A stretch of 64,000 nt of DNA from a virus (lineage: Duplodnaviria > Caudoviricetes): positions 4,528-68,527 of the IMG/VR virus record IMGVR_UViG_2914811602_000003; one strand, 5' to 3'. Numbering within the stretch: the stretch's first letter is position 1; each line of letters starts with the position of its first letter. Shown here in pieces: positions 6,341 to 25,861 of the stretch. Below the pieces are notes generated by a model. The model was not told where the DNA came from and did no database searches. It saw nothing but the letters and a program-made list of their open reading frames with translations. Both the position numbers and the translations under genes were made by a program.

Positions 6341-7396
6341 TTAGATCGTCGCGGCTTCCTGGAAGCGACGGCCTCTCAGCTCCAGGGGCGTGGTGCTGAG
6401 GAGGTTTCCGGCGAAGAAGTTCAGGGAGTCCCGGACATGGAGCTCGAAGCAACCGGGGGTGGTCTCGACGATGAAGTACCCGTGGGAGGGCTCGTCAAAG
6501 CTGTAGGCGCTGTCTGCGGTGTAGGCGAGGTTGCGCGCTGAAAGCGTGCTCTCAAACGGGCGAATCCACTTGGCCCCGGCCGTGTCGTCCACGATGGCCC
6601 GTTCAAGGAACAGGCGCAGGTAGGTGTAGACCGACACCCATTCGAGTTCATGGAGTGCCTCGCGGAACGGGCCTGCAAAGTCCCCAAGACAGGGTTCGTC
6701 GTTGCCGAGGATATGCGGGTGGACCCGGTTCTGGTTGTCCCAGGAGAACGGCGCTTGGTCCCGCTGGCCGCGCACTGGAGCCAGGTGAACGGTGCCATCC
6801 GTCAGGCGGAGACTGACTTGGACGTCCTGGAGTGGGAACGATGGGATGCTCCCCGCGCCGAGTCCTCGGAGCCAGGCGTACGGGTTACGGTCTGGCCGCA
6901 TGAGCAGACCCGTGAACACCCAGCGGACGAAGGGGACGCCATAAGGGGCGTACCCTGTGGCGATACTCCCCGGCTTGAGGTTCGGGAGTCCCGTGAGGGC
7001 TCTGGTGAGATCCGCTTTGGTGACACGCTGCTCGCCCTGGAAGCCGGACGGGTAGCGGCGCAGTTGTTCCCGAGTGTTCGTCAGTTCGACGATGACTTGC
7101 CCTAAGTGGTACTTGGTGCGACGGTGCTGCCCTATGGCGTTCTCGACCAGGTTGTTAAGGGTGCCGCGCACGTTGGCGATGAACTGCTGTCCGTGGTGGT
7201 TTTCGGTGTCGTCGGGGATGTGCTGGTTTAGGGTGTTATCGAGGAGCTGATGCCAGGACTGAAAGTCTTGGATTTGGGCCTCGTGCCGGGCCACGAGCGC
7301 ATGGGTCTCCGCGTAGGAGCGCTCGTAGGCTTCGACGCTGTTCTTCAAACGCTGGTAGTTCGGATCGGTCCAGGCAAGTTCGTAGGCAAATGGCAT
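6341..7396 (-). CDS. Prokaryotic E2 (UBC-like) domain protein with N-terminal coiled coil
   Basis: VHPHILGNDEPCLG aligns residue for residue with the E2 consensus HPNI...G.ICL (Cys 10 residues after the first His); lies directly after the JAB and ThiF genes. Confidence 0.72.
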   Translation of the reverse strand: MPFAYELAWTDPNYQRLKNSVEAYERSYAETHALVARHEAQIQDFQSWHQLLDNTLNQHIPDDTENHHGQQFIANVRGTLNNLVENAIGQHRRTKYHLGQVIVELTNTREQLRRYPSGFQGEQRVTKADLTRALTGLPNLKPGSIATGYAPYGVPFVRWVFTGLLMRPDRNPYAWLRGLGAGSIPSFPLQDVQVSLRLTDGTVHLAPVRGQRDQAPFSWDNQNRVHPHILGNDEPCLGDFAGPFREALHELEWVSVYTYLRLFLERAIVDDTAGAKWIRPFESTLSARNLAYTADSAYSFDEPSHGYFIVETTPGCFELHVRDSLNFFAGNLLSTTPLELRGRRFQEAATI

Positions 7397-7399
7397 GGG

Positions 7400-8125
7400 T
7401 TAGTTTCCTTTCACGAAAAACGGGTCGCTGAGTTGGGCGTAAAAGCGATCTTCGAGGTCGTCGTAGGTGATGATCTCGTCGAGCCGGGGCTCCTGGCGCT
7501 TGGAGCTGATCGTGAAGTTCCGGGCATTGAAGACCGGGGGCTTGGCGCGACGCTCAATGACGCGCGCATCGATCAGCTCATCGAGGGCGTCGAAGAAGTC
7601 GATGTCGCGCAGATGTTCGTAGACGTCCCGATGGACACACTGGAAGACGACGCCCTGGCGCTTGTCGAAGACGTCGAGCTTGTAGTCGCCCTTCTTGTTG
7701 CGGATCTCGCGGATGAACCAGTCGGTGTGTTCGAGGTAGTCGCTCAGGTGCTCCTGGTCGGTGGGCGAGGGCGAGGCGGGCATGTTGACGTGGCTGTGCC
7801 CGTGGTAGCGCAGGTGGCTCGGGTCATCCCCGGCGTCCAGGATCTCCCCGGTGAGTTGCGCGATGGCGTTGGCGGTGATGTCGACGGTCGCGGCGGTGAC
7901 TTCCTGCTCGGGGATCAGGATCTTGTAGACGACATAGGCGTCCAGGTCTTCCTCGTAGCGCACGAGGCCGAACCAGGCCACCTCGACGTCCATCGCGCGC
8001 ACGAGATGGCGCACGGTGAGCTCGGCCTCGATCGTGAAGAGCACCATCGGGGGTTCAGCGCTTGGCGCTGGGTACAAGGGCGTGACGGCGGGCACGTTGG
8101 AGTTCTGGAAAGCGATCTTGGGCAT
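7400..8125 (-). CDS. JAB/MPN (JAMM) metallopeptidase
   Basis: Exact JAMM motif HSH-x7-S-x2-D (HSHVNMPASPSPTD) with upstream Glu in MDVEVAWFG. Confidence 0.87.
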   Translation of the reverse strand: MPKIAFQNSNVPAVTPLYPAPSAEPPMVLFTIEAELTVRHLVRAMDVEVAWFGLVRYEEDLDAYVVYKILIPEQEVTAATVDITANAIAQLTGEILDAGDDPSHLRYHGHSHVNMPASPSPTDQEHLSDYLEHTDWFIREIRNKKGDYKLDVFDKRQGVVFQCVHRDVYEHLRDIDFFDALDELIDARVIERRAKPPVFNARNFTISSKRQEPRLDEIITYDDLEDRFYAQLSDPFFVKGN

Positions 8126-8175: not shown

Positions 8176-8874
8176 TTAGCGCGACCACTCAGCCGTGGTG
8201 ACGATGAGCGGCTTGAAATACGCCTTGATGATGGCGCTGGCGCCTTCAGGGTTGGTCTTGGCGTTGATGAACTGCCACACGGCGAGATTGGCGATCAGCG
8301 CGGCGGTTGGGGCCACACTGAAGGGTGAGCCGCAGGCCGATACCTCGGCGTCCTCGTCCGCGCCCAGGGTGGCGAGGTACTGAGCGCGTTGCTCCTCGTC
8401 CGAGGGGTTGAAGGTGTAGATCACGCCATGCGTCGCGGCCATGCGCGTGTCGATGACACGCGGGATGTCGAAGCAGGGCGTGGGGAGGGCTTCGACGAGC
8501 TGGCGCCGGGTTTCGAGGCTATCGACCAGCAGAAAGACGGTGCCGTCGAGCTCGTGGATAGACTCGGGGGTGACGGCGACGGGCCGGAAGACCATCCCCT
8601 TGGGTACATGAGTCGGCGAGCAGCCGAGTTTGCGCACGGCCCAGTCGAAGAGTCCTTCGGTCTTGGGGATACCGATGTCACGGTGCATGAAAAGCTGATT
8701 GGCCAGGTTGTGCTCCTCGACGCGATCGGGGTCGAAGACCTTGATCCGGGTCAGCCCGAGCTCGACCAGGGTGGCGAAGACGCGGGAGCCGACCGCCCCG
8801 GCGCCGACGATGGTGATGCCGGTGTCGTGGTCGCGAGGGTTGAAGATTTCCTGATGGCGCAGTGTGCTGAGCAT
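8176..8874 (-). CDS. ThiF/E1-family adenylyltransferase
   Basis: ITIVGAGAVGS, FDPDRVEEHNLANQ, PKT, LLVDS, IDTRM; candidate catalytic Cys in EVSACG. Confidence 0.9.
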   Translation of the reverse strand: MLSTLRHQEIFNPRDHDTGITIVGAGAVGSRVFATLVELGLTRIKVFDPDRVEEHNLANQLFMHRDIGIPKTEGLFDWAVRKLGCSPTHVPKGMVFRPVAVTPESIHELDGTVFLLVDSLETRRQLVEALPTPCFDIPRVIDTRMAATHGVIYTFNPSDEEQRAQYLATLGADEDAEVSACGSPFSVAPTAALIANLAVWQFINAKTNPEGASAIIKAYFKPLIVTTAEWSR

Positions 8875-8879
8875 GGCGG

Positions 8880-9434
8880 TTACTCGGTAACGAGGATCAG
8901 TGTGTCGGTATCGGTTTCAGGGCGCAGGTAGAGCCCCCGGTAGTCGTTGTAGTGGGCGCGTTCGAGGTGGCGTTGCACGGATTCGGGGTCGTGGTGGATG
9001 AAGCCGTGCGCGGGCTTGACGCGCTGGGCGCCGACGCGCTGCACGGCGCGGCGGACGCTGTTGAGTCGCGGTTCGAGAAAGAGGCAGTTCTCGTTGTCGA
9101 GCACGAAGAGGTTGCTGACCGGTGTCAGCGGGTGCATGTACTGGTCGAGCATGGCCTCGATGTCGAGGACGTCGATGTCCTTGCCGCTGCGCACGGTGAG
9201 GATGCCGTCCATCTGGTGCAGCGCTTCGAGCCCGAAGCGCTTGTGGATGGTCTTGTTGCCGACCGGCTGCCCGTCCCGAACCCGGTGGACGCGCCCGTCC
9301 TGGATTGAGACATGCACGCCTTCGAGGGCGTACCAGGCCAGGTAGGGGTAGTCGCTGAGCTCGGCGATCCGAGCGGTTTGAATCAACGGATAGGCGGGTC
9401 GAGACTGTGCAGCTTGTCTTGGAGTCGGGTACAT
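8880..9434 (-). CDS. Degenerate ATP-dependent DNA ligase adenylation-domain homologue (probably inactive)
   Basis: Follows the short phage ligase pattern, but KxDG reads ALEG, DGE reads DGI and YEG reads YRG; no OB domain. Confidence 0.5.
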   Translation of the reverse strand: MYPTPRQAAQSRPAYPLIQTARIAELSDYPYLAWYALEGVHVSIQDGRVHRVRDGQPVGNKTIHKRFGLEALHQMDGILTVRSGKDIDVLDIEAMLDQYMHPLTPVSNLFVLDNENCLFLEPRLNSVRRAVQRVGAQRVKPAHGFIHHDPESVQRHLERAHYNDYRGLYLRPETDTDTLILVTE

Positions 9435-9679
9435 AGTTCTGAGAGCTCGGTGACGTGTTCGCAGAGACGGTGTGCATCGTCGAGCGCGGCTCCGATGATC
9501 TGGAAGCGGCGCTTGTGAACGGGCATGTGGAACGTGAGTTGGCGTTCCAGGACGTCGATGTAGTCGGCGGCGCGGATCAGCAGCGGGAGCGCCGGGCCGA
9601 GGTTCGGGTTGAAGTCGCGCAGGATCTGTTGCAGCGCGATGCCCTCATCGAGCAGTCCTTGGTAGAAGTTTTCATCCAC
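9383..9679 (-). CDS. Hypothetical helical protein
   Basis: Likely GTG start at 9679 behind GGAGGAG; 98 aa. Confidence 0.55.
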   Translation of the reverse strand: MDENFYQGLLDEGIALQQILRDFNPNLGPALPLLIRAADYIDVLERQLTFHMPVHKRRFQIIGAALDDAHRLCEHVTELSELCTRLQDKLHSLDPPIR

Positions 9680-9836
9680 GGAGCTCCTCCACGAGTTCTT
9701 CGAGGGTGTAGTGGCTGTTTTTGACGAGCTCTTGGAACACTTCCAGTTGCTCATCCCGAGAGAGCTCCCAGAAGGCGAGACTGAGCTCGCGGAGGGTCAC
9801 CTCGGCGGTGATGTCGACGTAGAGTTCGGCGGGCAT
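9672..9836 (-). CDS. Small hypothetical protein (54 aa, not in track)
   Basis: MPAELYVDITAEVTLRELSLAFWELSRDEQLEVFQELVKNSHYTLEELVEELRG; fills the operon gap. Confidence 0.55.
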   Translation of the reverse strand: MPAELYVDITAEVTLRELSLAFWELSRDEQLEVFQELVKNSHYTLEELVEELRG

Positions 9837-9846
9837 TGGGGGTCTC

Positions 9847-9996
9847 CTAGCGAACGTCGGCGTAGATGACTTGGGCGATGTAGGCGACGAGCACGGTGAG
9901 ATAGATCAGCGCGTGGCCTCCGTCCTTGTCGGCCATCGCCAGCGACATCCCGACGCCCGTCAGGAAGGTGATGAGCATGGTCAGGAATACGAGCAT
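9847..9996 (-). CDS. Small two-helix membrane protein (49 aa)
   Basis: MLVFLTMLITFLTGVGMSLAMADKDGGHALIYLTVLVAYIAQVIYADVR with GGAG upstream. Confidence 0.6.
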   Translation of the reverse strand: MLVFLTMLITFLTGVGMSLAMADKDGGHALIYLTVLVAYIAQVIYADVR

Positions 9997-10205
9997 GGAG
10001 TGGTCTCCTCGATGGGCTGGTATCGGACGACGCGCTTGAGGCCAAGCGCTCGGAGCAAGGCGCGAGGGGCTTGGCGCTGGCCGCGAGCGATCGAGCCGAT
10101 GTGGGTCGGGTGGTAGGGGAGGCTGAGTTGCTCGACGAGCTTGGCGTAGCCTCCGGTGTTCTGGGCGAGTGCCTTGACGTGTTCGCGCAGTTCTTCTTCG
10201 GTCAT
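9981..10205 (-). CDS. Putative HTH DNA-binding protein
   Basis: Start MTEEEL; helix-turn-helix-like segment HPTHIGSIARGQRQAPRALLRALGLKRVVRY. Confidence 0.5.
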   Translation of the reverse strand: MTEEELREHVKALAQNTGGYAKLVEQLSLPYHPTHIGSIARGQRQAPRALLRALGLKRVVRYQPIEETTPCSYS

Positions 10206-10579
10206 GCTGGGTTCTTGGGTCTGGGTTCGAGGGTGTGAGTCCAATGGATCGGGTGCCGGGGTCTAGGGGCTCGAAGCACTGGGCCTTGGGTTCTGATCCA
10301 TTCGCCGCCAATGGGCTCGGGGCGGTGCGCATACCAGAACCAGTCACCGTCCATGTCCATTGCCAACCAGTGCGCCCAGTCCGGGGCGTCGGCCCAGCGG
10401 GAGTCGGGCGGCGGCACCCGTGCATGAGCGACCCAGTGGTCGACCTCGGCGTCGGTCTCGCCAGTGAAGAGCCCTTCGCCCGCCGCGCGCTGAGCGATGG
10501 CTTCAAGCAGGTCGAGGAGCTGGGACGCAGGCGTGGTGCCTGGGGCGTACTCGACGGTGAGGATGAGCTGGGCTTTCAT
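10202..10579 (-). CDS. Phage hypothetical protein with Trp-rich WADAPDWAHWLAMDMDGDWFWY motif
   Basis: Recurrent phage early-gene motif; ATGA overlaps with neighbours. Confidence 0.65.
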   Translation of the reverse strand: MKAQLILTVEYAPGTTPASQLLDLLEAIAQRAAGEGLFTGETDAEVDHWVAHARVPPPDSRWADAPDWAHWLAMDMDGDWFWYAHRPEPIGGEWIRTQGPVLRAPRPRHPIHWTHTLEPRPKNPA

Positions 10580-10827
10580 TCCAGGGTCTCCGCAGATCCT
10601 TGAGCCAGTCGCAAACAGGCTTCGTCAGCCTCGTCCTCAGTGATGGGTTCGAGGAACGAGCGCTCGGTGAGCCAGAGCTGGTCCGTCTCAGGGTTCTCGG
10701 CGATGAGGCTGGCTCCATCGTCACAGTGGACTGCCACGATCTTGCACACGGCGAAGTCGCGATCAGCCGGTGGGAGGTTTTTGGCGAGGAAGGTGTCGAT
10801 GAAGTAGTGGCCGATGTAGTCCATCAA
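10576..10827 (-). CDS. Hypothetical protein (83 aa)
   Basis: ORF with GGAG RBS in operon direction. Confidence 0.6.
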   Translation of the reverse strand: MMDYIGHYFIDTFLAKNLPPADRDFAVCKIVAVHCDDGASLIAENPETDQLWLTERSFLEPITEDEADEACLRLAQGSAETLE

Positions 10828-10885
10828 GGTTCTCCGGGTGAGTGGGCGCCCCAGGCGCTCAGTCCTGGGGCTTGGCGCTGTGGGC

Positions 10886-11101
10886 TTAGGCGGCGCTCTT
10901 CGCGGCCTTGGCGAGCACGATCCGCGCGCCGTCGCTCAGGGTGGCGTCCTGGGCCGAGGCGTGACCGTTGACGGTCAGCTCTTCGTTCGATGACGGGGTG
11001 ATGTCGGCCGCTGCCAGGGCGTCGGCGACGGTGGCGCCGTCGTTCAGAGCGATCTCAGAAACCGAACCCGGAACGCGAACGATCTTGACGAACATGGTCA
11101 T
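10886..11101 (-). CDS. Ubiquitin-like (ThiS/MoaD beta-grasp) protein 1
   Basis: VKIVRVPG...LNDGATVADAL...LTVNG....LSDGARIVL beta-grasp pattern; ends AKAAKSAA. Confidence 0.8.
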   Translation of the reverse strand: MTMFVKIVRVPGSVSEIALNDGATVADALAAADITPSSNEELTVNGHASAQDATLSDGARIVLAKAAKSAA

Positions 11102-11183
11102 GGTGTTTTCTCTCTTTGTTGTGGGTGCTGGGTGGGTGGTGGATGCCCCGAGCGCTCGGGGCTCGGGGCTTGGCGCGTGGGGC

Positions 11184-11402
11184 TTAGCTCGCGCTCTTAG
11201 CTTGCTTGGCGAGGATCAGACGGTCGCCGTCGTTGAGTGGGTGGCCAACGACGACCGGATGACCGTTCACGGAAATCTCTTCCGAGCTGGACGGAGTGAT
11301 CGAGGCGGCGGTCAGGGCGTCTTCGACGGTGGCGCCTTCAGGCAGGCAGACTTCGGACACGGCGCCTGGGACTCGAACGACCTTTACGAACATCGCGGAC
11401 AT
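11184..11402 (-). CDS. Ubiquitin-like (ThiS/MoaD beta-grasp) protein 2
   Basis: Paralogue of 10886-11101 (44/69 identical by manual alignment); ends AKQAKSAS. Confidence 0.8.
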   Translation of the reverse strand: MSAMFVKVVRVPGAVSEVCLPEGATVEDALTAASITPSSSEEISVNGHPVVVGHPLNDGDRLILAKQAKSAS

Positions 11403-15981: not shown

Positions 15982-17634
15982 TCAGTCAGCCGCGAACCCA
16001 GCGCACGTTTCTGCATCATCGACCACATCAGGCAGCAGCGGCAAGCCCAATTCCTTGAGGAAGGTGTTGTGCTGCGCTTGGGCGGTTTTGATGGTCGCTT
16101 CCACCGCGACCAACTGCCGATGTATCGCGTCAAGATCAATCTCTTCCTCGGCTTCGGCCGTGCTGACATAGCGCGAAATGTTCAGGTTGTAGTCGTTGCG
16201 CTCGATCTCGTCCATCGGCACGCGGCGGGAATAGCGATCCGCTTCCCGGCGATACTGATAGGTCTCGACGATCTTGTCGATGTGCTCGGGGTTGAGAACA
16301 TTCTGGCGCTTGCCTTTCTCGAAGTGCTCGGCGGCGTTGATGAACAGCACATCATCGGGCTTCTTGCACTTCTTGAGCACCAAGATGCAGACGGGGATAC
16401 CGGTTGAGAAGAACAGGTTGGCCGGAAGGCCGATCACGGTGTCGATATGGCCGTCTTTCAGGAGCTTGGTGCGGATGCGGGCTTCGACGCCACCACGAAA
16501 CAGCACGCCGTGAGGCAAGATGATCGCCATCGTGCCTTCGTCGCTGAGGAAGTTGAAACCATGCAACAGAAAGGCAAAGTCAGCGGCGGATTTCGGGGCC
16601 AGGCCGTGGCTCTTGAAGCGGAAATCCTCGCCCAGCGCCTCGGTCGGCTCCCATTTGTAGCTGAAGGGCGGATTGGCAACGACAGCATCGCACTTGAGCT
16701 TTTTGGCCGGGTTCATCTCGTTGAACAGCGGCCAGTCATTGGTGAGTGAATCGCCGTGATAAATCTCAAATTCGGTGTCTTTCAACCCGTGCAGCAGCAT
16801 GTTCATGCGTGCGAGGTTGTAGGTGGTGATGTTCTTCTCCTGCCCGTAGATTTTGCCGATGCCGTTTGCGCCCATCTCGTGGCGGACGTTGAGCAGGAGC
16901 GAGCCGGAGCCGCAGGCGAAGTCGAGCACGGATTTCAGTTGCTTCTTTTTGCCGGTGGCCGGTTCTTGGCTGTCGAGGGTGACGATCCGCGAGAGGATGG
17001 TCGAGAGGGTTTGCGGGGTGTAGAACTCTCCGGCTTTTTTGCCCGAACCAGCGGCGAATTGGCCGATCAGGTATTCGTAGGCGTCGCCGAGGATGTCGCT
17101 GGCGGTGGAGAATTGCGCGATGCCTTCGGCGATCTTGGTGATGATGGTGCAGAGCTTTTTGTTGCGCTCGGCGGGGGTGCGACCGAGTTTTTCGGAGTTG
17201 AGATTGATCTCGGAAAAGAGTCCTTTGAACGCCGCTTCAAAGGATTCGTTTTCGATGTAATCGAAGCACCGCTCCAGCGTTTGCAATAGCTCAGTGTCTT
17301 GGGTGCGGGCGCGTTCGTAGAGGCTGCTCCAGAGATAATCGGGATGAATGACATAATGCACGGTGCGGCGCATCTGCTTTTCGAATTCGGGCGCGTCGGC
17401 GGCATTGTCGGCGTACCAGAAGGCGAGCGGCGGGCGGCGGTCATCGAGGCGCGTTTTGGGGTAGTCGGGGCCAAGTTCGCGCTGGGCGGCGGTCTCGTAG
17501 TTGTCGGAGAGGTAGCGCAAGAACAGGAACGAGAGCATGTAGTCGCGGAAGTCGTCCGCGTTCATCGCGCCGCGTAGCTGGTCGGCGATGCCCCAGAGTG
17601 TTTTACCGAGTTGGCTGAGTTGTTCTTTGGTCAT
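15982..17634 (-). CDS. hsdM: Type I RM methyltransferase subunit
   Basis: GAMNADDFRDY, GEFYTP, DFACGSGSLL (motif I), ANPPF (motif IV), GVLFRG, NLNISRY. Confidence 0.96.
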   Translation of the reverse strand: MTKEQLSQLGKTLWGIADQLRGAMNADDFRDYMLSFLFLRYLSDNYETAAQRELGPDYPKTRLDDRRPPLAFWYADNAADAPEFEKQMRRTVHYVIHPDYLWSSLYERARTQDTELLQTLERCFDYIENESFEAAFKGLFSEINLNSEKLGRTPAERNKKLCTIITKIAEGIAQFSTASDILGDAYEYLIGQFAAGSGKKAGEFYTPQTLSTILSRIVTLDSQEPATGKKKQLKSVLDFACGSGSLLLNVRHEMGANGIGKIYGQEKNITTYNLARMNMLLHGLKDTEFEIYHGDSLTNDWPLFNEMNPAKKLKCDAVVANPPFSYKWEPTEALGEDFRFKSHGLAPKSAADFAFLLHGFNFLSDEGTMAIILPHGVLFRGGVEARIRTKLLKDGHIDTVIGLPANLFFSTGIPVCILVLKKCKKPDDVLFINAAEHFEKGKRQNVLNPEHIDKIVETYQYRREADRYSRRVPMDEIERNDYNLNISRYVSTAEAEEEIDLDAIHRQLVAVEATIKTAQAQHNTFLKELGLPLLPDVVDDAETCAGFAAD

Positions 17635-17875
17635 CTGTAGCTTTCTCTCCGATGGAGAACCCGGCCAATGAGGATCGTCTCGCCGACGACATCGAACAAA
17701 ATCCGATAATCGCCGACACGCAGCCGATAGGCCGGTTCGAAATTCGTCAGTTTTTTATATTGGGGACGTCTGGAAAGGCGGCTAATGTTTTAATTGCCGC
17801 GTGCAGGCGTTGTTTTTGAGGTGTGTCGATGTGTTGCAAGTCCTTGATCGCGCTTTTTCGCAGTTCAATCCGCAT
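17631..17875 (-). pseudogene. relE: RelE/ParE-family toxin with 1-bp deletion frameshift
   Basis: MRIELRKSAIKDLQ...PDVPNIK continues one frame over as KLTNFEPAYRLRVGDYRILFDV...VLHRRESYR. The span is 245 nt and the A6 run at 17751-17756 lacks one base. Confidence 0.85.
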
Positions 17876-18053
17876 GAGCGAGATAGTCCTCGAATGGGAT
17901 TGATGATTCATCGCGTGTTGCGTGGAGCGCCTTTAAGTCTTCAAGGTCTTCGATGGAGACGATTTCGGCACCGTCATGCTTGAAGTGTTCGAGTAACCAC
18001 AACACTTTTTCCGCGAGTTGGTCGTCTTTGATGTTGATGGCGATGTGATGCAT
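17865..18053 (-). CDS. Putative RelB-like antitoxin
   Basis: 62-aa acidic ORF overlapping the relE start; ends SIPFEDYL, typical of antitoxins. Confidence 0.65.
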   Translation of the reverse strand: MHHIAINIKDDQLAEKVLWLLEHFKHDGAEIVSIEDLEDLKALHATRDESSIPFEDYLAHAD

Positions 18054-18068
18054 GGCGCTGGCTCTTGA

Positions 18069-19367
18069 TTAGGATTGAGACTTTGGAAAAAGCTGTTGCA
18101 TCAGCCCTTTTTTATGCGTTTTGAGAGCGTCGAGTTTTTCCGTCTGGGCTGCGATGAGGATATCGAAAAAGGAAAGACAGGCGGCGATTTTTTGTTGTTC
18201 TCGTAAAGCCGGGGCAACTAGGGTCATTTCTTTGAAGAATGAAGCGCCAATAGTTTTTATAGTATTGCCGACCGCTATTGCCTCAAAGTATGGCTTCATT
18301 TTTTGCAGGGCATAGTAAAAAAACCAATTCGACAGTTTTGATTCATGACACTGCCAAGCCATGAAATGTTGACTCACTGCCATTGGAGAGTGAAGAACAG
18401 CGCTTTTCCCAACTCCTGCGTCGCGGCTCAAAATTACAGTGCCCGCAGGATGAAGAACTGCTGATGAATTTTTGATGCCGTCTTCGGATATTTCGACTTT
18501 AGTGTTAAAGATGTATCCATTATCTAATTTATCTGAATCAGCCAGCGAAACCCAACGTATTCCTCCATTGTAATAATTCGCTATTTTCTTGTTTGGCGTA
18601 TGCCCTGAACCTCTTTTAGCCATATCTTCAAGACTTTGTTCCTCCCACTCACCAGCCTCCTGAAACTCGGGGAAGCGCAGTCGTGGCACGGTTTCGCCCT
18701 CACGGGGGAAAAGCTGTTGCATCAGCCCGAACTTGTAGGCTTTCAAGGCATCGAGTTTGTCAGCTTGCGCGGCGATCAGGGCATCTAGGGAAGAGAGACA
18801 AGAGGCGATTTTTTGTTGTTCGAGTAAAGAAGACTTGCCTTTTGGCAAGGGGACCGGCGTAGCTAAGAAATCTCGGTTATCGATGTTCAATGAACCATGA
18901 GCGCGTGCACCTATGGTGATGAAATTTTTCAGCCATTTTCCATGTAGATTGTTCAGGAATTGAAAATAAAGAAATTGAGGAAGTGCGCTTTTACGGTCTA
19001 CTCTAAAGCATGTAAATACGCTATTTGGAACTGCTACCGGCGTAGCTCCTGAATACATATCAATAAAGCCTTCTGGGTAATTTTTAGTAGCACTTTTGTT
19101 ATATGCAAAATCTTGGTCTTGAATAACAATATAATTGCGATACTGTGCGCCTGCGATTACTTTGCCGAATTTTTCTAATTGAGAAACTAAACCAACGCCA
19201 GCGGTTATGCTCATTGGGGTAAGTTTCTTGTGCCCTGCTCTCTCGTTTATTAAGGCAGATATTTCATCGAGTTTTCTTAATTCCCACTCCCCCGCATCCT
19301 GAAACTCAGGAAACCGCAACCTCGGTACCAGCCCCGTCTTTTCGTCGCTCATACTATCTTCACTCAT
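18069..19367 (-). CDS. hsdS: Type I RM specificity subunit
   Basis: Two VPRLRFPEFQ(D/E)AGEW and two EQQKIA.CLS..D.LIAAQ..KLDALK..K.GLMQQLFP conserved blocks flanking two low-GC TRDs. Confidence 0.94.
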   Translation of the reverse strand: MSEDSMSDEKTGLVPRLRFPEFQDAGEWELRKLDEISALINERAGHKKLTPMSITAGVGLVSQLEKFGKVIAGAQYRNYIVIQDQDFAYNKSATKNYPEGFIDMYSGATPVAVPNSVFTCFRVDRKSALPQFLYFQFLNNLHGKWLKNFITIGARAHGSLNIDNRDFLATPVPLPKGKSSLLEQQKIASCLSSLDALIAAQADKLDALKAYKFGLMQQLFPREGETVPRLRFPEFQEAGEWEEQSLEDMAKRGSGHTPNKKIANYYNGGIRWVSLADSDKLDNGYIFNTKVEISEDGIKNSSAVLHPAGTVILSRDAGVGKSAVLHSPMAVSQHFMAWQCHESKLSNWFFYYALQKMKPYFEAIAVGNTIKTIGASFFKEMTLVAPALREQQKIAACLSFFDILIAAQTEKLDALKTHKKGLMQQLFPKSQS

Positions 19368-22300
19368 ACGCCGCCAATCCTGAAATCTCACGCCCACCCG
19401 CCTGCTTCTTGAGCAGAGGCGTCAACTCTTCCATCAATGCCCGTTCCGCCTGACCACGCGCTTTCCAGCCGAGACCCAGCGGCGCGAATAGCTCACGGAG
19501 TTGCTCGCCGTCGAAGATCAGGCGATCCAGAACCCCGGTCACAAAGCCTTGCAGCGCCTCCCGCGCCAACCCGTGCCGATCCGCCAGGGCGCTCAGTTCG
19601 TCCTCCGTTTTCTGCGCTTTAAAGGTCTGGTAGCCCTCACGGATGGCCTGCTCGCTCAAGCCCTTTCCGGCTTCCAGGGCGTTGATGTAGGCCACGATGT
19701 CTTCGCGCTCGTCCATCAGGTTGCTGTTGGCGTGCAGCAGACTGATGAGCTGATCGCGGCTCATGGTCTGCTTGCCGGGCGGCTCCTGACTGAAGCGCGC
19801 AACCAGATCCATGATGTAGTCATAGTCGATCGTCGCTGAGGAAAAGAGCACGAACTCGAAATCAAGCTGCTCGATGGTCTTCTGGATGTCGTCGCCGTTG
19901 CCGCCCGTGCCCTGCTGCGCCTTGAGCCGCTGGGCGGTCTCCAGATACATCCCCTTGAAGCCGCGCAAGGTCTCTTCCGGCAAGTGCTGTTCGATCTGCT
20001 CACGTTGCGCGTCGTTCAGGTCGGTGTACTGGTCAAGCTGCGTCTTGAGCCGCTGAATCTCCTTGAAGTGATTGACGAACGCAACCCGCGCTGCATCGCC
20101 CTTGAGATTGTTGACCGCCTCCGGCGTGCAGGGCTGCCCCTGCTTGGCCATGAAGGTTTCCAGTTGCTGCACAGCGGCATCGAGCTTTTCGATGACCGTC
20201 GGGGCCGGATCAACCAGCCAGATTTTGCGGGCGCGACGACTGTCCTCGCCGGAGAAGAGCGCGATGGCCTCATCCACAGCCTTTTGCTGGGCGCGGAAAT
20301 CGAGGATGTTGCCGTAAGGCTTGGTGTCGTTGAGCACGCGGTTGGTGCGCGAGAAGGCTTGAATCAGACCGTGATGCTTGAGGGGCTTATCGACATAGAG
20401 GGTGTTGAGGTACTGAGAGTCGAAGCCGGTCAGCAACATATCGACCACAATTGTAATGTCGATCTTGTGCTTGTGCGGGTAGTCGCTGTTGGGGTACTTC
20501 TGATCTTTGATGCGTTGCTGCACATCCTGATAGTACAGATCGAACTCACTCAACGTGTGGTTGGTGCCATAGCGGGCGTTGTAGTCGGCGATGATCTGCT
20601 GTAGGGCGGCTTTCTTCTTCTCAGGCTCCTGCTGGTTGTCGGCCTTTTCCTGCGGTAGGTCTTGCTGCAACTGCTTGACATCCGCATTGCCCTCGGCGGG
20701 CGGGGAGAACACGCAGGCAATGTTGAGCGGGCGAAAGTCCGGGGCGGTCGCCTGACGTTCAGCCTGCACCTGCTTGAAGCGCTCGTAATAGGCGATGGCC
20801 TCGTTGATGGAGGCGGTAGCCAGCAGGGCGTTGAAGCGGCGCTGGTTGGTCGCGGCATCGTGTTTAGCGAGGATGGCCTCGACGACAGCCGATTGCGCGA
20901 CGACCGGGCCGGGCTTGACGCTGTTGGGCTTGGTTGGGGCTGGAGCCGGAGCCGGCTGGGCGTCTGCATCACTCGGCGCTTTGGGCTTGCCCTCGGCTTT
21001 GAAGTAATCGACATGAAACCGCAGCACGTTGCGATCATCAATGGCGTGGGTGATGGTGTAGGCGTGCAGTTGCTTCTCGAAGATGTCCTTGGTCGTCTTG
21101 TAGGAGCCGACCGTGCCGTCGATCTTCTCGTAACTGGCGTTATCATTGAAGATGGGCGTGCCGGTAAAACCGAACAGTTGCGCCTTGGGGAAAAACCCTT
21201 TGATGGCCTGATGGTTGTCGCCAAACTGCGAGCGGTGGCATTCGTCGAAGATGATGACCAGGCGCTTGTCGCGCAGCGGGGCGAGCCGTTCCTTGTAGGT
21301 CAACTGGCCCTTGTCCTTATGCTGCCGGGCCTTCTTGCTGTTCTCATCCAGCGCCAAGCCGAGCTTCTGAATGGTGGTGACGATCACCTTGTCGGCATAG
21401 TCTTCCGAGAGTAAGCGGCGAACCAGAGTCTCGGTGTTGGTGTTCTCCTCGACACAGCCTTCCTGAAACTTGTTGAATTCGATACGGGTCTGGCGGTCGA
21501 GATCCTTGCGATCCACCACGAACAGGCATTTCTCGATGTCGGGGTTGTCCTTGAGCAGGGTCGCGGCCTTGAACGAGGTGAGCGTCTTGCCGCTGCCGGT
21601 GGTGTGCCAGATATAACCATTGCCCAGACACTCGTGGATGCAGGCAACGATGGCCTTGACGGCATAGATCTGGTAGGGGCGCATGATCAGTAGCCGCTGC
21701 TCACTGGCGACCAGAACCATGTACTGGCTCATCATCTGGCCGAGGGTGCACTTCGCTAGAAACTGCTCCGCGAACTCGTCGAGATGGGTGATCTTGCGAT
21801 TCTCGACATCGGCCCATTGGTAGATCGGTAGAAAACGCTCGTCGGCGTTGAAGGCGAAATGCTGGCTTTGGTTGTTGGCGAAGTAGAAGGTCTGATCGCG
21901 GTTGCTGACGATAAAGAGTTGCATGAAGCAGAGCAGCGTGTTGGTGTAGCCGTTGCCGGGATCGTTGCGATACTCGACGATCTGTTCCATCGCGCGGCGC
22001 GGGTTGATGCCCAACGTCTTCAGTTCGGCCTGCACCAGCGGTAGACCGTTGATCAGCAGGATGACGTCATAGCGGTGGTGGCTGTTGTCGGTGTTGATGC
22101 GCAGTTGGTGAATGACCTCGAAGTCGTTCTTGCACCAGTCCTTGAGGTTGACCAGCATGTAATGCAGTGAGGTGCCGTCCTCGCGCTGAAAGTAGCCGTA
22201 TTCGCGCAGTCGCTTGGCGGCCTGGAAGACATCGGCGGTGATGATCTCATCGCGGAGGCGTGCGAACTCGGAATCGTTGAGCGTGACGCCGTTGAGCGCC

Positions 22301-22425
22301 TCGAACTTGGCGCGAAAATTCTGCTCTAGCGCGGCCTTGTCGCGGATGTCGGGGCGATAGGTGTACTTGAGTTCCTGGAGCTTGTCGATCAGCCGCTGTT
22401 CGATGGCGCTTTCTTTCAGGGTCAT
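19360..22425 (-). CDS. hsdR: Type I RM restriction subunit
   Basis: YDVILLINGLPLVQAELK nuclease motif, WHTTGSGKT, IFDECHRSQFG, FTGTP, MLLTGFD, QAFSRTNR. Confidence 0.96.
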   Translation of the reverse strand: MTLKESAIEQRLIDKLQELKYTYRPDIRDKAALEQNFRAKFEALNGVTLNDSEFARLRDEIITADVFQAAKRLREYGYFQREDGTSLHYMLVNLKDWCKNDFEVIHQLRINTDNSHHRYDVILLINGLPLVQAELKTLGINPRRAMEQIVEYRNDPGNGYTNTLLCFMQLFIVSNRDQTFYFANNQSQHFAFNADERFLPIYQWADVENRKITHLDEFAEQFLAKCTLGQMMSQYMVLVASEQRLLIMRPYQIYAVKAIVACIHECLGNGYIWHTTGSGKTLTSFKAATLLKDNPDIEKCLFVVDRKDLDRQTRIEFNKFQEGCVEENTNTETLVRRLLSEDYADKVIVTTIQKLGLALDENSKKARQHKDKGQLTYKERLAPLRDKRLVIIFDECHRSQFGDNHQAIKGFFPKAQLFGFTGTPIFNDNASYEKIDGTVGSYKTTKDIFEKQLHAYTITHAIDDRNVLRFHVDYFKAEGKPKAPSDADAQPAPAPAPTKPNSVKPGPVVAQSAVVEAILAKHDAATNQRRFNALLATASINEAIAYYERFKQVQAERQATAPDFRPLNIACVFSPPAEGNADVKQLQQDLPQEKADNQQEPEKKKAALQQIIADYNARYGTNHTLSEFDLYYQDVQQRIKDQKYPNSDYPHKHKIDITIVVDMLLTGFDSQYLNTLYVDKPLKHHGLIQAFSRTNRVLNDTKPYGNILDFRAQQKAVDEAIALFSGEDSRRARKIWLVDPAPTVIEKLDAAVQQLETFMAKQGQPCTPEAVNNLKGDAARVAFVNHFKEIQRLKTQLDQYTDLNDAQREQIEQHLPEETLRGFKGMYLETAQRLKAQQGTGGNGDDIQKTIEQLDFEFVLFSSATIDYDYIMDLVARFSQEPPGKQTMSRDQLISLLHANSNLMDEREDIVAYINALEAGKGLSEQAIREGYQTFKAQKTEDELSALADRHGLAREALQGFVTGVLDRLIFDGEQLRELFAPLGLGWKARGQAERALMEELTPLLKKQAGGREISGLAAYE

Positions 22426-22515
22426 CCGATGTTCTCTCCTTGGCTAAGCGTTTCTCGGCCTACGGCGGCACAGCACATCTTGCCGCCGCTGAAGTCAGGG
22501 GCTTCGGAATTGTGG

Positions 22516-22722
22516 TTAAAGCGGCTGATCGCGACAGAGAGGGATCTGAACCTCGACGCGATTGGGTGCCCGTTGCAGCGGATCCAGACCGGGATAATCG
22601 CGAATCATGATCTCCAGCATGTTCGACAGACTGCGATGCTCGCGCTCGGCAGCTTGGCGCAACGCGGCCTTGGTCTCGGGACAGAGGCGGATAGTCAGGG
22701 TCTCGGTCTTGCGGGCTGACAT
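22516..22722 (-). CDS. Ribbon-helix-helix (Arc/CopG-like) regulator
   Basis: MSARKTETLTIRLCPETKAALRQAAEREHRSLSNMLEIMIRDY; directly upstream of hsdR. Confidence 0.72.
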   Translation of the reverse strand: MSARKTETLTIRLCPETKAALRQAAEREHRSLSNMLEIMIRDYPGLDPLQRAPNRVEVQIPLCRDQPL

Positions 22723-23132
22723 AATGGTGCGCGGTCCGGTTTCGCTTGTCGTGCCGCGATAGTACAACAACGGTACGTCCACGGCTAGGCACTAGGGGTG
22801 GCGTGTAAGCTGTGAGGATCAATGGACCAGCGGGGGCAGAAGCCACCCCGAAGATAGGGCAGGCAGCCTTTCGGGCCGGGCGACACGTTAAGGACCGGAC
22901 GTGGCGGTTCCTGTCACCGCTAACCTCGCCGCTATGTTCAACCCGGCGACGGGGCAGGCTGAGGTGAGGCGCGTCTTCAGTGGCGGCGTGCTCGTCCGCT
23001 TCAGGCGGGCATCGTGCCGCTGACGCAAGCGCTGTTGCTGGGTTTTTTGGAGGTCGTCTAGCTGACGTTGCGGCTGACCGAACTTGCACAATAATTCGAC
23101 CCTAGCCTCTTTGCACTCCTCTCTAACCGCTG

Positions 23133-23915
23133 TTAGATTCTTGCCAAACCGTTAGTTGTGATGGAATTTATCGCCATTTCGCGTTTTATGGCAGATGCCT
23201 TTTTCCTGCTAGACTCCGATGGGTTGCGGGTATCAGCGTTAAGCCATGCTTTAATGGTTCCGTTACCCTTGGATGGGTGTGTAAGGTGAACGCATAAAAA
23301 GTTTTTTGTCCTGTATGTAACAGCATCAATCTCTTTAAACCCATCAGGGTATAAAAAGCGAAATAAATTCCTACATTGCCGTATGTAAGGGTCTGTCACA
23401 CCAAGCAAGCACACTAGGTCGACCGATGAAGGAATACTGGAAAGATATTTTTGTGTGCAGTTGGAAATGATCCATGGGATTTCTTTAAAAGATTTAACCA
23501 TTAATTCGCCAGAGGTTTTGTAGACTTCTCTGCCTTTTTCTAGCGATTCCTTTTCGTCTATTCTTGCGCAACTGCAACGAACAAGCGATGTAAAATAAAA
23601 TTCTTGTTCTGTTTCTTTGATTTTTTGGTCAGATGTTTCTAATGGAGATAGTAGTTTAACTCGACGCAGAATATCAGTAAGGTTTCTTCGGGTTTCCTGG
23701 CCGCCAAATGCGACGTCATCAAAATTGCCGCTTTGATAGATATCTGACTGAGTAGAGCCTTTCGAAAAACCAACAACCATTATTCTCGGATTTCTGCTTC
23801 CCCAAGAGCCGGGATCGTTTCTCAGCTTCCATTTTGGATGTGGTTTTATAGTAGCGTCAGGCGAGTTGAAGCAATCACGACAATCCAATCTCCCATGTTT
23901 TTGTAGCTCAGTCAT
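23133..23915 (-). CDS. Uracil-DNA glycosylase superfamily-like protein
   Basis: PRIMVVGFSKG, FYFTSLVRC and VHLTHPS follow the order of UDG-superfamily motifs; low GC. Confidence 0.55.
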   Translation of the reverse strand: MTELQKHGRLDCRDCFNSPDATIKPHPKWKLRNDPGSWGSRNPRIMVVGFSKGSTQSDIYQSGNFDDVAFGGQETRRNLTDILRRVKLLSPLETSDQKIKETEQEFYFTSLVRCSCARIDEKESLEKGREVYKTSGELMVKSFKEIPWIISNCTQKYLSSIPSSVDLVCLLGVTDPYIRQCRNLFRFLYPDGFKEIDAVTYRTKNFLCVHLTHPSKGNGTIKAWLNADTRNPSESSRKKASAIKREMAINSITTNGLARI

Positions 23916-23937
23916 TTTGAACTCCTAATTCTTGCAA

Positions 23938-24198
23938 AGCTAACGAATAAGGTTAGATTCTTCTATCTCGACTTTGGCCATTTTTGGACTCCCACAGCCA
24001 GCTAAGTGCTTGAAACTTCGTAGGGGTGGAAAATTAGAGGGGGTCTGGACGCACGAACGCCGGATTTTGACCCCTCGCTATTTTTCTTGCGCCTTGTAAG
24101 TTACTGATCAAAAATGAGTTGCTGGTCAGGAAAAATGGCAAAATTCGAGTTCATAAAATGACGTAGATTTATGGGTCGTCTTTGATTTTTTGTTAGGC
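23938..24198. repeat. Long nested inverted-repeat element bounded by integron-like core sites
   Basis: IR 23967-23985 vs 24131-24149 (17/19), inner IR about 24030-24045 vs 24069-24085; minus-strand GCCTAAC at one end and GTTAGCT at the other. Confidence 0.55.
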
Positions 24199-25647
24199 AT
24201 TTATTTCAACTTCAATGTCTGAAATTAGTTGGTCAAATTCTGAATTAACTTCAAGAATATATTTCTCAATGGCAACCGTGCGAATGACGCTCTCATCAGT
24301 TTCCGCCTCCTTTGCAATACATGAAGCGTATTTGTGATGATTCTTTACTTCTTCTTTCTCTATCAACCAGTCGAAGTCAATGCCATATTTTTCTTTGATC
24401 AGCTTTTTTACGCTGTCGTTTGTAAAAACCTCCTTTTCTGGCGGCAGGCATCCCGGAAAAGAATACAGGTGTTCTTCTTTTTTTTGACCAATGTCTGCAT
24501 CTCTAATCGCGATTGCCTTTTTGCCCGTTCTCAATAAAACCTTGACGGCTTCCCTCACAGCATCTTTGTCGCCGATATCGTGTACAGCAATTGCTTTTAA
24601 TAATGCCTTGTTTTTTATTCTGATCACTTCTGTTAGTAAAACTTTAGCAAATATGTCTTCGACGCAAACATCTAGCTGCCTAACATAACCGTCAGAAAGG
24701 ACTGATCGGACTTGACATGAAGATATTCTGTTTCTAATTTCAACTCCATTTTCATCCCGCAACAGCAGTTTTCTAGCTTCTGGCGGTAATGCTTCTATAA
24801 TTACGCTTGAATGGGTTGATAAAACAATTTGATGATGCCGTCTGTTGCAAACATCTAATAAATATTTTGCAAATTCGTGTTGCGCACTTTCGTGAAGTGA
24901 CGTTTCAGGTTCTTCTAAGACAAAAAGGCTTTGTTCCGGAGACGTTTCAAGCAAATCAACTGTGTAAAGTATTCTACCTTCTCCGAATCCCATATTATTT
25001 TCAGAATACGAATTTCCAAGTCTAGATGCAATTCCAATCTCTAGCTCTTTCCCTCTGTGTGAGACGCCCTGAAAATTTACGCTATCATATTTGTGGCCTA
25101 TGATTCGCGCCATTTTTGTTACGACATCATTATCTAACTCTCTTTTTTCAGTTATTTTGATATTGATTCCGCCATAAATACTTAAATCTCGCCGTTCAAC
25201 CTTTGGGATGTAAACTGTAAATCCCACGTAAAAACAGTAGCGCTCTGGCTGTCGTTTATAACCAGACCAAGCAGAACTCGCTCGCGTTATAGTAACTTCC
25301 TGCGGCTTTCTATAGTCGTCTGTTTCGTATGTATAGATAATTTTTGCGCTATCTGAAATTGGCTTTGGATCAGCCGGAGATATTGGAAAAAAATCTTTTA
25401 TATATAGTCTTTTATATTGCACTGATGTTTGTGGTTTTTTGTAACCACAAATTGAAACTTGCCCGATCGTGCTTTTTCCTGCGCCGTTTAAGCCGGTAAT
25501 TGCAGTTATCGGAAATTCTATTTCGAAGCTTAAATTATCTATTCCACGAAAGCCCTCAATGTCCAGTTTCCGCAAACAGTGCCCAAAGTTTTTATATCTG
25601 TTTTTTTCTGAAAACTTTGATTTGAGAGTTCTAGCTATATCTGTCAC
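24193..25647 (-). CDS. OLD-family-like ABC ATPase with C-terminal TOPRIM-like domain
   Basis: LDIEGFRGI, GLNGAGKST, MGFGE signature, VLEEPETSLH, LSTHS; C-terminal VCVED...RDAD; likely GTG start at 25647; low GC. Confidence 0.8.
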   Translation of the reverse strand: MTDIARTLKSKFSEKNRYKNFGHCLRKLDIEGFRGIDNLSFEIEFPITAITGLNGAGKSTIGQVSICGYKKPQTSVQYKRLYIKDFFPISPADPKPISDSAKIIYTYETDDYRKPQEVTITRASSAWSGYKRQPERYCFYVGFTVYIPKVERRDLSIYGGINIKITEKRELDNDVVTKMARIIGHKYDSVNFQGVSHRGKELEIGIASRLGNSYSENNMGFGEGRILYTVDLLETSPEQSLFVLEEPETSLHESAQHEFAKYLLDVCNRRHHQIVLSTHSSVIIEALPPEARKLLLRDENGVEIRNRISSCQVRSVLSDGYVRQLDVCVEDIFAKVLLTEVIRIKNKALLKAIAVHDIGDKDAVREAVKVLLRTGKKAIAIRDADIGQKKEEHLYSFPGCLPPEKEVFTNDSVKKLIKEKYGIDFDWLIEKEEVKNHHKYASCIAKEAETDESVIRTVAIEKYILEVNSEFDQLISDIEVEINA

Positions 25648-25861
25648 TCTATATTCCTTTTTGCTTAACAATGAATTTAAAATTAATTAGAATTCTCAGG
25701 TCTATACTGTAGTCCGTTTAAACCCATTGCTATAAAAAGCTAGTAGCTGATGGATGGACTCGCCGTCCTCGCCCGAAATCAGCCCAACGTGGACGCTTGC
25801 CAGGCTGGCCCGCTTCTTCCGTCGATGCAGTACCTCGTGCCACGTCCACGGAAAGGATAGC

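Follow-up and report, generated by a model that had tools for sequence, protein, structure and literature searches.

The window analysed here, a 64,000-nucleotide stretch of a Caudoviricetes genome (positions 4,528 to 68,527 of IMG/VR virus record IMGVR_UViG_2914811602_000003), carries a tandem pair of genes for small ubiquitin-like proteins (Ubls), Ubl1 and Ubl2, together with genes for an E1-type activating enzyme, a JAB-type peptidase and an E2-like protein. Ubls of the ThiS/MoaD type have a terminal Gly or Gly-Gly, whereas Ubl1 and Ubl2 end in K-S-A-A and K-S-A-S; this tail, its relatives and the enzymes that may act on it are the subject of the present analysis. The pair and the hairpins beside it are as follows:

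10886..11101, minus strand: Ubl1, 71 residues, ThiS-superfamily β-grasp protein, tail K68-S69-A70 followed by a putative cap, A71
11184..11402, minus strand: Ubl2, 72 residues, paralogue of Ubl1, tail K69-S70-A71 followed by a putative cap, S72
11145..11169, minus strand: GC-rich hairpin just past the Ubl2 stop codon, fold −21.1 kcal/mol, z −3.27, without a T-tract
~10848-10885, minus strand: weaker hairpin 3′ of Ubl1, z of only −1.6, without a T-tract

Each of the two Ubl genes carries a start codon of its own, with AGGAGA 8 nt upstream of the Ubl2 ATG, and a 380-nt metagenome contig bridges the tandem arrangement. Neither of the two hairpins was called as an intrinsic terminator. The duplicated unit, ~298 bp long, extends into the 3′ flank TAAGCCC..GCGCCAAGCCCC. 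The two proteins align without gaps at 44 identical residues of 69 (64%; BLASTP, E 2e-31) and terminate in LAKAAKSAA (Ubl1) and LAKQAKSAS (Ubl2); Ubl1 has its final Gly at residue 58 and Ubl2 at residue 59, and the last 13 residues of both are Gly-free. A first-pass annotation of this DNA had reported the same level of identity and the Gly-free ends KSAA and KSAS, which the open reading frames (ORFs) and BLASTP bear out. The divergent patch that it had also described, and to which it tentatively ascribed different targets, does exist (seven residues, 48–54), though it falls where the Ubl family as a whole varies most (2.0–3.3 bits per column).

Pfam matches to the pair (ThiS, RnfH and SAMP2) are all sub-threshold; ThiS (PF02597) scores 18.6 bits for Ubl1 and 17.4 bits for Ubl2, below the gathering cut-off of 22.5 that multi-repeat relatives exceed (41–56 bits). 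The AlphaFold2 (AF2) model of Ubl1, made from a 68-sequence alignment (pLDDT 87.8), has the element order β-β-α-β-β, with strands at 2–10, 14–20, 40–44 and 60–65, a helix at 25–31 and a floppy tail (66–71). Its best match to a solved structure in Foldseek is the Caldiarchaeum ubiquitin 6fj7 (E 5e-4, 28% identity), and the other matches include mycobacterial MoaD, NEDD8, RnfH and SAMP1 (prob 1.00, E 5e-4 to 7e-3). The predicted β-grasp fold and these structural matches indicate that Ubl1 and Ubl2 are true ubiquitin-like proteins of the ThiS superfamily.

Searched against 1.84 billion representative sequences, a HMMER profile of the Ubl family matched 1,091 clusters at E ≤ 1e-3, of which 228 also passed E ≤ 1e-10, and the family is carried mostly by phages. 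We tallied the tails of 162 family proteins, in which the terminal triplet is most often KGN (93), followed by KSA (18), KGA (14), KGG (5) and KNA (2). About 44% of them are poly-Ubls with two (50 proteins), three (16) or four (6) repeats that follow one another without a spacer and are joined at K-G-N (e.g. L026:3761-3967 and representatives P0021-P0170); the internal junctions read KGN 94 times, KGA seven times, KGG four times and RGG three times. Past the terminal triplet there is no further residue in 64 proteins, one in 57 and two to four in 18, and not one of the 162 terminates at the second triplet position. Entropy at columns 67–70 is 0.86, 0, 1.18 and 0.99 bits, rising to 3.07 bits at the cap column 71, on a par with the most variable columns of the protein. 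Lys68 is the sole invariant column among 68 single-domain members; because Arg or other residues replace it in more distant members, the pattern points to charge recognition rather than to chemistry on the lysine.

S69-A70 of Ubl1 and S70-A71 of Ubl2 align with positions 75–76 at the end of the Pfam ThiS model, which correspond to the G-G of ThiS. On K-G-G relatives such as P0108 and P0065 the model also reaches its last position, exactly where P0108 terminates, and KGG and KGN poly-Ubls have an equal repeat period. Polyubiquitin genes encode one extra residue past the last unit. The ThiS register, the K-G-G relatives and the conserved third residue followed by a variable cap suggest that the third triplet residue is the activated end and that the residue or residues after it form a removable cap, so that the mature tail would be K-G-N, K-G-A or K-G-G in the family and K-S-A in the window lineage. 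The first-pass annotation had proposed non-canonical activation at Ser or Ala; by this register activation at Ala is plausible, while Ser would be the penultimate residue.

Cleavage could instead fall one residue earlier (K-G|N in the family, K-S|AA here), with the mature Ser end activated by the E1 and the third residue (Asn or Ala) serving as an obligatory cap or P1′ determinant. JAMM enzymes characteristically cut after Gly, and Gly is the commonest residue at the second triplet column (68%), where the close homologue P0009 (AAKGNNA) has it aligned with Ser. JAMM cutting after Gly is exemplified by the BubCD peptidase, which cuts after Gly229 to make the mature Ubl end (PMC11601596). However, no family protein ends at the second position while 64 end one residue later, the third residue stays conserved (0.99 bits) even where it is the protein's last, unlike a disposable cap, and the ThiS model with the K-G-G variants aligns the third residue with the terminal Gly. 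A terminal Ser, moreover, abolished conjugation in the cyclic oligonucleotide-based antiphage signalling system, CBASS (PMC10097602), and we regard the earlier cut as unlikely, although worth retaining.

The K-S-A tail is found in 18 sequences from several sources, which differ from one another by up to ~60% and include at least eight separate 50%-identity clusters among the best 150 representatives. On a tree of 68 Ubl cores (65 columns, poorly resolved) the K-S-A label is clustered, and the tree is compatible with a single origin or with several. In ten metagenome homologues of Ubl1 (57–87% identity) A67 and K68 are invariant, and the tails are K-S-A in eight, K-G-N-N-A in one and K-N-A in one. 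Wastewater contigs from four metagenome runs (~90–99% identical) span both Ubl genes, which are intact and in tandem. Their tail codons differ from those of the window by synonymous changes only (AGC to AGT at S69 and GCC to GCT at A70 of Ubl1; GCT to GCC at A68 of Ubl2), and the non-synonymous changes concentrate in the variable patch (codons 50–57) and in the Ubl2 cap. There the last codon (window position 11189) reads GGC in place of AGC in runs X2, X3, X4 and X6, changing S72 to Gly and giving an AKSAG end, which marks the last residue as a freely varying cap. Seven bases of the spacer between the Ubl genes, at 11154, are absent from the wastewater contigs (X2, X3, X4 and X6).

K-S-A is under purifying selection. 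Its spread, together with the synonymous-only change of the tail codons, argues that these are not dead alleles, and Ubl1 and Ubl2 are, by sequence comparison, most probably functional modifiers whose end, unusually, is Ala rather than dead copies of a Ubl gene. Where the first-pass annotation had allowed that all homologues might end in KG and that the window pair might be inactive alleles, the 18 K-S-A sequences and eight of the ten close homologues show a retained non-Gly variant. We give very little credence to the view that K-S-A reflects the decay of a K-G-N Ubl into inactive alleles within a defective prophage: Gly does occupy the second triplet position in most of the family and the element lies integrated in a chromosomal contig of 528 kb, but the diversity and several sources of the K-S-A sequences, the intact tandem genes of the wastewater relatives and the motifs kept by all the partner enzymes speak against decay.

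The Ubl genes sit in the replication/early module of a prophage, within the 528-kb contig of a 4.58-Mb genome, and share their strand with genes for a primase, a dCTP deaminase, an exonuclease and a family-A DNA polymerase. The E1 gene lies 2 kb downstream of the Ubl genes on the same strand, and the JAB and 351-residue E2-like genes lie further downstream:

8176..8874, minus strand: E1 of the minimal ThiF family, 232 residues, PF00899 at E 6.9e-17, GAGAVGS at residue 24
7400..8125, minus strand: JAB/JAMM metallopeptidase, 241 residues, weak Prok-JAB match, E48 (EVAWFG) and H110-S-H-x7-S-x2-D123
6341..7396, minus strand: E2-like protein, 351 residues, predicted coiled-coil hairpin (12–113), α/β region (122–290) and small β domain (290–347)

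The E1 is a single domain with neither a rhodanese nor an E2 fusion, and its Rossmann fold starts immediately (ThiF profile positions 21–202 on residues 18–206). It has a GxGxxG motif and a DxD region and contains Cys only at 85, 134 and 181, of which C181 (SACGSP) is invariant in the E1 family and, judged from the primary structure, would lie in the crossover loop. PADLOC matches this E1 to its E1-E2 (Cap2-type) model (E 5e-11); across the PADLOC models, the only matches were to E1-E2 models of CBASS type and, faintly, to a JAB model, the Bil models remaining unmatched. Matches of the E1 profile in the PDB include Cap2 chains and MccB (E 4e-7). At residues 56–60 the E1 reads NLANQ, and CxxC is absent, both as first described; in the 120 E1 homologues the Arg of NLxRQ is replaced by Asn or Ser in 117 of 117 readable motifs (HNLANQ in 96) and CxxC occurs in none. 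The first-pass annotation had suggested that these features co-evolved with the Ser-Ala tail, a suggestion that finds no support, because they are family-wide: nine E1s adjoining K-G-N or K-G-A Ubls are likewise Arg-less and without CxxC. Candidates for tail specificity, on alignment, are positions 147, 151, 188 and 192, on either side of two conserved motifs, TRMAxTHG and C-G-S-P-x-S-V-x-P. They are A, V, A and A in the window E1 and its 81–89% identical relatives, compared with S, N, G and S in eight or more of the nine E1s whose neighbouring Ubl has a K-G-N or K-G-A tail; they may equally be plain phylogenetic signal.

The JAMM motif of the JAB protein is complete (H110-S-H-VNMPASP-S-PT-D123) and conserved in eight aligned JAB homologues. 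The C-terminus of the protein (7400-7414, minus strand) reads FFVKGN, like the consensus tail of the Ubl family. The end codons AAA GGA AAC double as a Shine-Dalgarno sequence, the E2-like gene starting 4 nt after the stop codon, and the JABs of the KG-lineage end otherwise (EGGY, REH, KE and KDH); for both reasons the resemblance of the VKGN end to a Ubl tail is probably a coincidence.

In the E2-like protein, H226-P-H-x7-C236-x-G-D is invariant in 14 homologues. Its AF2 model (pLDDT 90.3) comprises the coiled coil followed by a helix, a β-meander, the HPH..C loop and three helices, and the predicted order of the α/β elements fits the ubiquitin-conjugating (UBC) fold. Foldseek matched the model weakly to UBE2A, Rad6 and Ube2S (E 0.1–0.3, TMt 0.42), and a structure atlas gave a lead to viral Prok-E2_D clusters (0.86) and a TM of 0.49 to PRTRC protein B, a member of a Prok-E2_D cluster. 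The VIA-align matches of the full-length model are dominated by the N-terminal coiled coil, the BFVD matches are confined to unnamed phage proteins, and nothing was returned by a Pfam scan of each member, a PDB profile search or hhalign against two Prok-E2_D proteins. With profile methods blank and structural matches that are weak but consistent, we label the protein E2-like rather than E2.

The same set of genes recurs across phages. Thirteen IMG/VR loci encode Ubls 48–55% identical to those of the window, and all the complete Ubls among them end in GAKGN (in L005 the contig stops short of the tail); the gene order in the IMG/VR loci is Ubl, E1, JAB, E2-like, polymerase and primase. Of 15 fetched loci, 12 have all four cassette genes (11 from IMG/VR and the metagenome locus L029) and the others are truncated by the end of the contig; the cassette is partial at contig ends in L002, L005 and L023-L025. 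Metagenome loci add the Ubl tails KGNVA, KGNA and KGAI as well as a triple head-to-tail poly-Ubl, and a more distant metagenome cassette is ordered E2-like, JAB, E1 and Ubl (PKGN tail). All 18 K-S-A proteins are single-domain, and the window has its two copies through tandem gene duplication instead. The 50,697 phage records yielded neither a DNA-level match to the cassette nor a tblastn match to Ubl1, and E1 matches reached only 31–35% identity; the Ubl profile was unmatched in 400 genomes of the same class and the E1 in 379 other genomes of the same order. Candidates from genome contigs (L015-L022) and metagenomes (L027, L028 and L030-L033) were set aside as RnfH/MoaD-like proteins with unrelated tails that do not belong to the Ubl family.

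We propose, as an even call, that the four components form a dedicated phage conjugation cassette in which the JAB protein trims the cap and the E1 activates a terminal Ala. The JAB enzyme would remove a one-residue cap, A71 of Ubl1 and S72 of Ubl2, and the E1 would adenylate the exposed Ala carboxylate. The Ubl would then be passed as a thioester to C181 of the E1 and on to C236 of the E2-like protein, and would be attached to lysines of phage or host targets; the JAB enzyme might also reverse the attachment. In type II CBASS, where an E1 activates a Gly or Ala C-terminus and a JAB protein trims the substrate or reverses the link, the last residue of 1,583 CD-NTases is Gly or Ala while the one before it varies, and Ala-ended CD-NTases are conjugated by Cap2, the nearest precedent for a terminal Ala as E1 substrate (PMC10097602). 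Several points weigh against the proposed scheme. No K-S-A protein is a poly-Ubl, and JAB processing in this lineage could differ; the E2 assignment draws on the HPH-x7-C motif, the topology of the model and structural matches that are weak. The Arg of NLxRQ binds the ATP phosphates in characterised E1s (MoeB and ThiF), and the chemistry of an E1 without it may differ. In E. coli CBASS, moreover, changing the terminal Gly to Ser abolished conjugation and changing it to Ala weakened it, so non-Gly tails can be costly (PMC10097602).

More tentatively, and with a probability of about a quarter, the E1 chemistry of the whole Ubl family may be independent of a terminal Gly, with Asn used in most members and Ala in the window lineage by an E1 that has neither the NLxRQ Arg nor the zinc site, making a complete, orthogonal protein-tagging system that phages would use in infection. 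The Asn-ended members could then be activated via a cyclic imide as in MccB, giving a different linkage, and if Gly-independent chemistry is true the K-S-A lineage is a natural experiment on which steps need the Asn side chain. MccB (the microcin C7 synthetase, whose substrate has a C-terminal Asn) resembles the phage system in the E1 profile match and in that most of the Ubl family ends in Asn; it differs in that the phage E1 has no N-terminal peptide-clamp domain and the window Ubls end in Ala or Ser. MccB chemistry needs a succinimide, which Ala cannot form, and it was rejected for the window lineage because Ala is unable to cyclise.

Among characterised systems, the Cap2/Cap3 pair of type II CBASS is also close in that the best defence-library matches of the phage E1 are Cap2-type E1-E2 models. 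In contrast to CBASS, the phage substrate is a β-grasp Ubl and not a nucleotidyltransferase, the E1 and E2-like proteins are encoded by separate genes, and the cassette has neither a CD-NTase nor an effector and belongs to a phage element rather than to a host defence island. The Bil (BilA-D) and Bub (6E) systems share the same four parts, Ubl, E1, E2 and JAB/peptidase (PMC11601596), but they are host systems whose Ubls expose a terminal Gly, and the single 232-residue domain of the phage E1 departs from the Bil architecture (PMC11601596). The parts list of the cassette matches operon classes described by Iyer et al. (PMC1779556). The PRTRC/6D type was tried and rejected: TIGR03736 scored 31 bits against a cut-off of 144.75, PF14460 had no candidate in the whole genome, and hhalign gave a probability of 0.2%. 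Eukaryotic polyubiquitin likewise consists of head-to-tail units without spacer (two to four in the phage family), usually with one residue after the last, although the phage junction is K-G-N and not R-G-G, and the window copies are separate tandem genes with hairpins.

The systems built on ThiS/MoaD with ThiF/MoeB, CysO-Mec and QbsCDE share with the cassette the β-grasp fold, the tail length, the ThiS register and a Pfam ThiF E1, and the Ubl could by analogy be a sulfur carrier, its C-terminus adenylated and thiocarboxylated to feed a phage thio-modification, for example of nucleotides that the adjacent replication and dCTP-deaminase genes produce. We consider this very unlikely. The fold and the E1 do belong to the ThiS/ThiF superfamily, Ubl, E1 and JAB trios are known as carrier arrangements (PMC1779556), and the cassette lies among nucleotide-metabolism (dCTP-deaminase) and replication genes. 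Yet it includes no rhodanese domain, cysteine desulfurase or sulfurtransferase, while it does have a conserved E2-like partner with a catalytic-type Cys and, in the family, poly-Ubl precursors typical of conjugation systems. The phage E1 also differs from ThiF/MoeB in having neither the CxxC zinc site nor the NLxRQ Arg. The Gly-Gly of ThiS/MoaD is replaced by G-N in the family and by S-A in the window, and to our knowledge all sulfur carriers end in Gly-Gly.

The host genome encodes three enzymes of related type:

C34, L043:658-3171, minus strand: cap2_3 fusion, NF058523 at E 1e-206
C56, L042:355-2652, plus strand: cap2_3 fusion, NF058523 at E 3e-193
C23, L040:1441-2823, minus strand: JAB-E1 fusion of the Bub/6E type, 460 residues

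Both cap2_3 fusions combine Prok-E2_A, ThiF and Prok-JAB domains ('anti-phage 6A-MBL system cap2_3'). A prophage with its own Ubl system thus resides in a host that itself encodes three enzyme systems of Ubl type. As possible partners, the two 6A-MBL E2-E1-JAB fusions and the JAB-E1 fusion lend some context to the decoy idea of the first-pass annotation, in which the Ubls would act non-covalently, either as adaptors or by misleading or inhibiting Ubl-type defence enzymes of the host, with K-S-A blocking activation, an effect in keeping with the impaired conjugation of non-Gly tails in CBASS (PMC10097602). We nevertheless think a decoy role quite improbable: even in distantly related phages the Ubl keeps the company of a dedicated E1, a JAMM peptidase with its motif intact and an E2-like protein that bears a Cys, enzymes for which a pure decoy would have no use. 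The E1, JAB and E2-like proteins of the window retain all conserved catalytic residues, and purifying selection acts on K-S-A specifically rather than on mere loss of Gly.

Prokaryotic Ubl-E1-E2-JAB systems have so far been known as host defences (type II CBASS and Bil) or uncharacterised host operons (Bub, 6A and 6D), whereas here a complete Ubl cassette recurs as a conserved component of a phage replication/early module; in a full-text literature search of limited coverage, no paper described an E1/E2/JAB/Ubl system encoded by a phage. The terminal-Gly rule is broken by Asn in most members and, in the window lineage, at both canonical Gly positions (Ser-Ala). The greater surprise lies at the level of the family, a large group of phage Ubls that are mostly Asn-ended and often poly-Ubls and that come with a complete enzyme set. 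If the Ubls are conjugated, the known substrate range of E1 enzymes would be wider, the question of which targets phages tag during infection would be raised, and the tryptic remnant on lysine (Ser-Ala, +158.07 Da, or Gly-Asn, +171.06 Da) would offer a handle for mass spectrometry.

The Ubl pair is separated from the E1 gene by ~2 kb of small ORFs (8880-9434 and 9383-10827, both on the minus strand) encoding proteins of 184, 123, 54, 87, 125 and 83 residues without a family match; K-G-N phages have a single small unrelated ORF (54–124 residues) between Ubl and E1. Jumbo phages of Xanthomonas and Erwinia (~227 kb; PV764601.1, PV764602.1, PV764603.1, OQ603353.1 and OQ603359.1) encode an E1 35% identical to that of the window, annotated in PV764601.1-PV764603.1 as 'thiamine biosynthesis protein', which could be part of a related Ubl system in those phages. 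Between the polymerase gene and the rest of the phage, the region 15982-25671 has a lower GC content (0.41–0.58, against ~0.63) and contains a gene set of the size of a type I restriction-modification system (550, 442 and 1021 residues).

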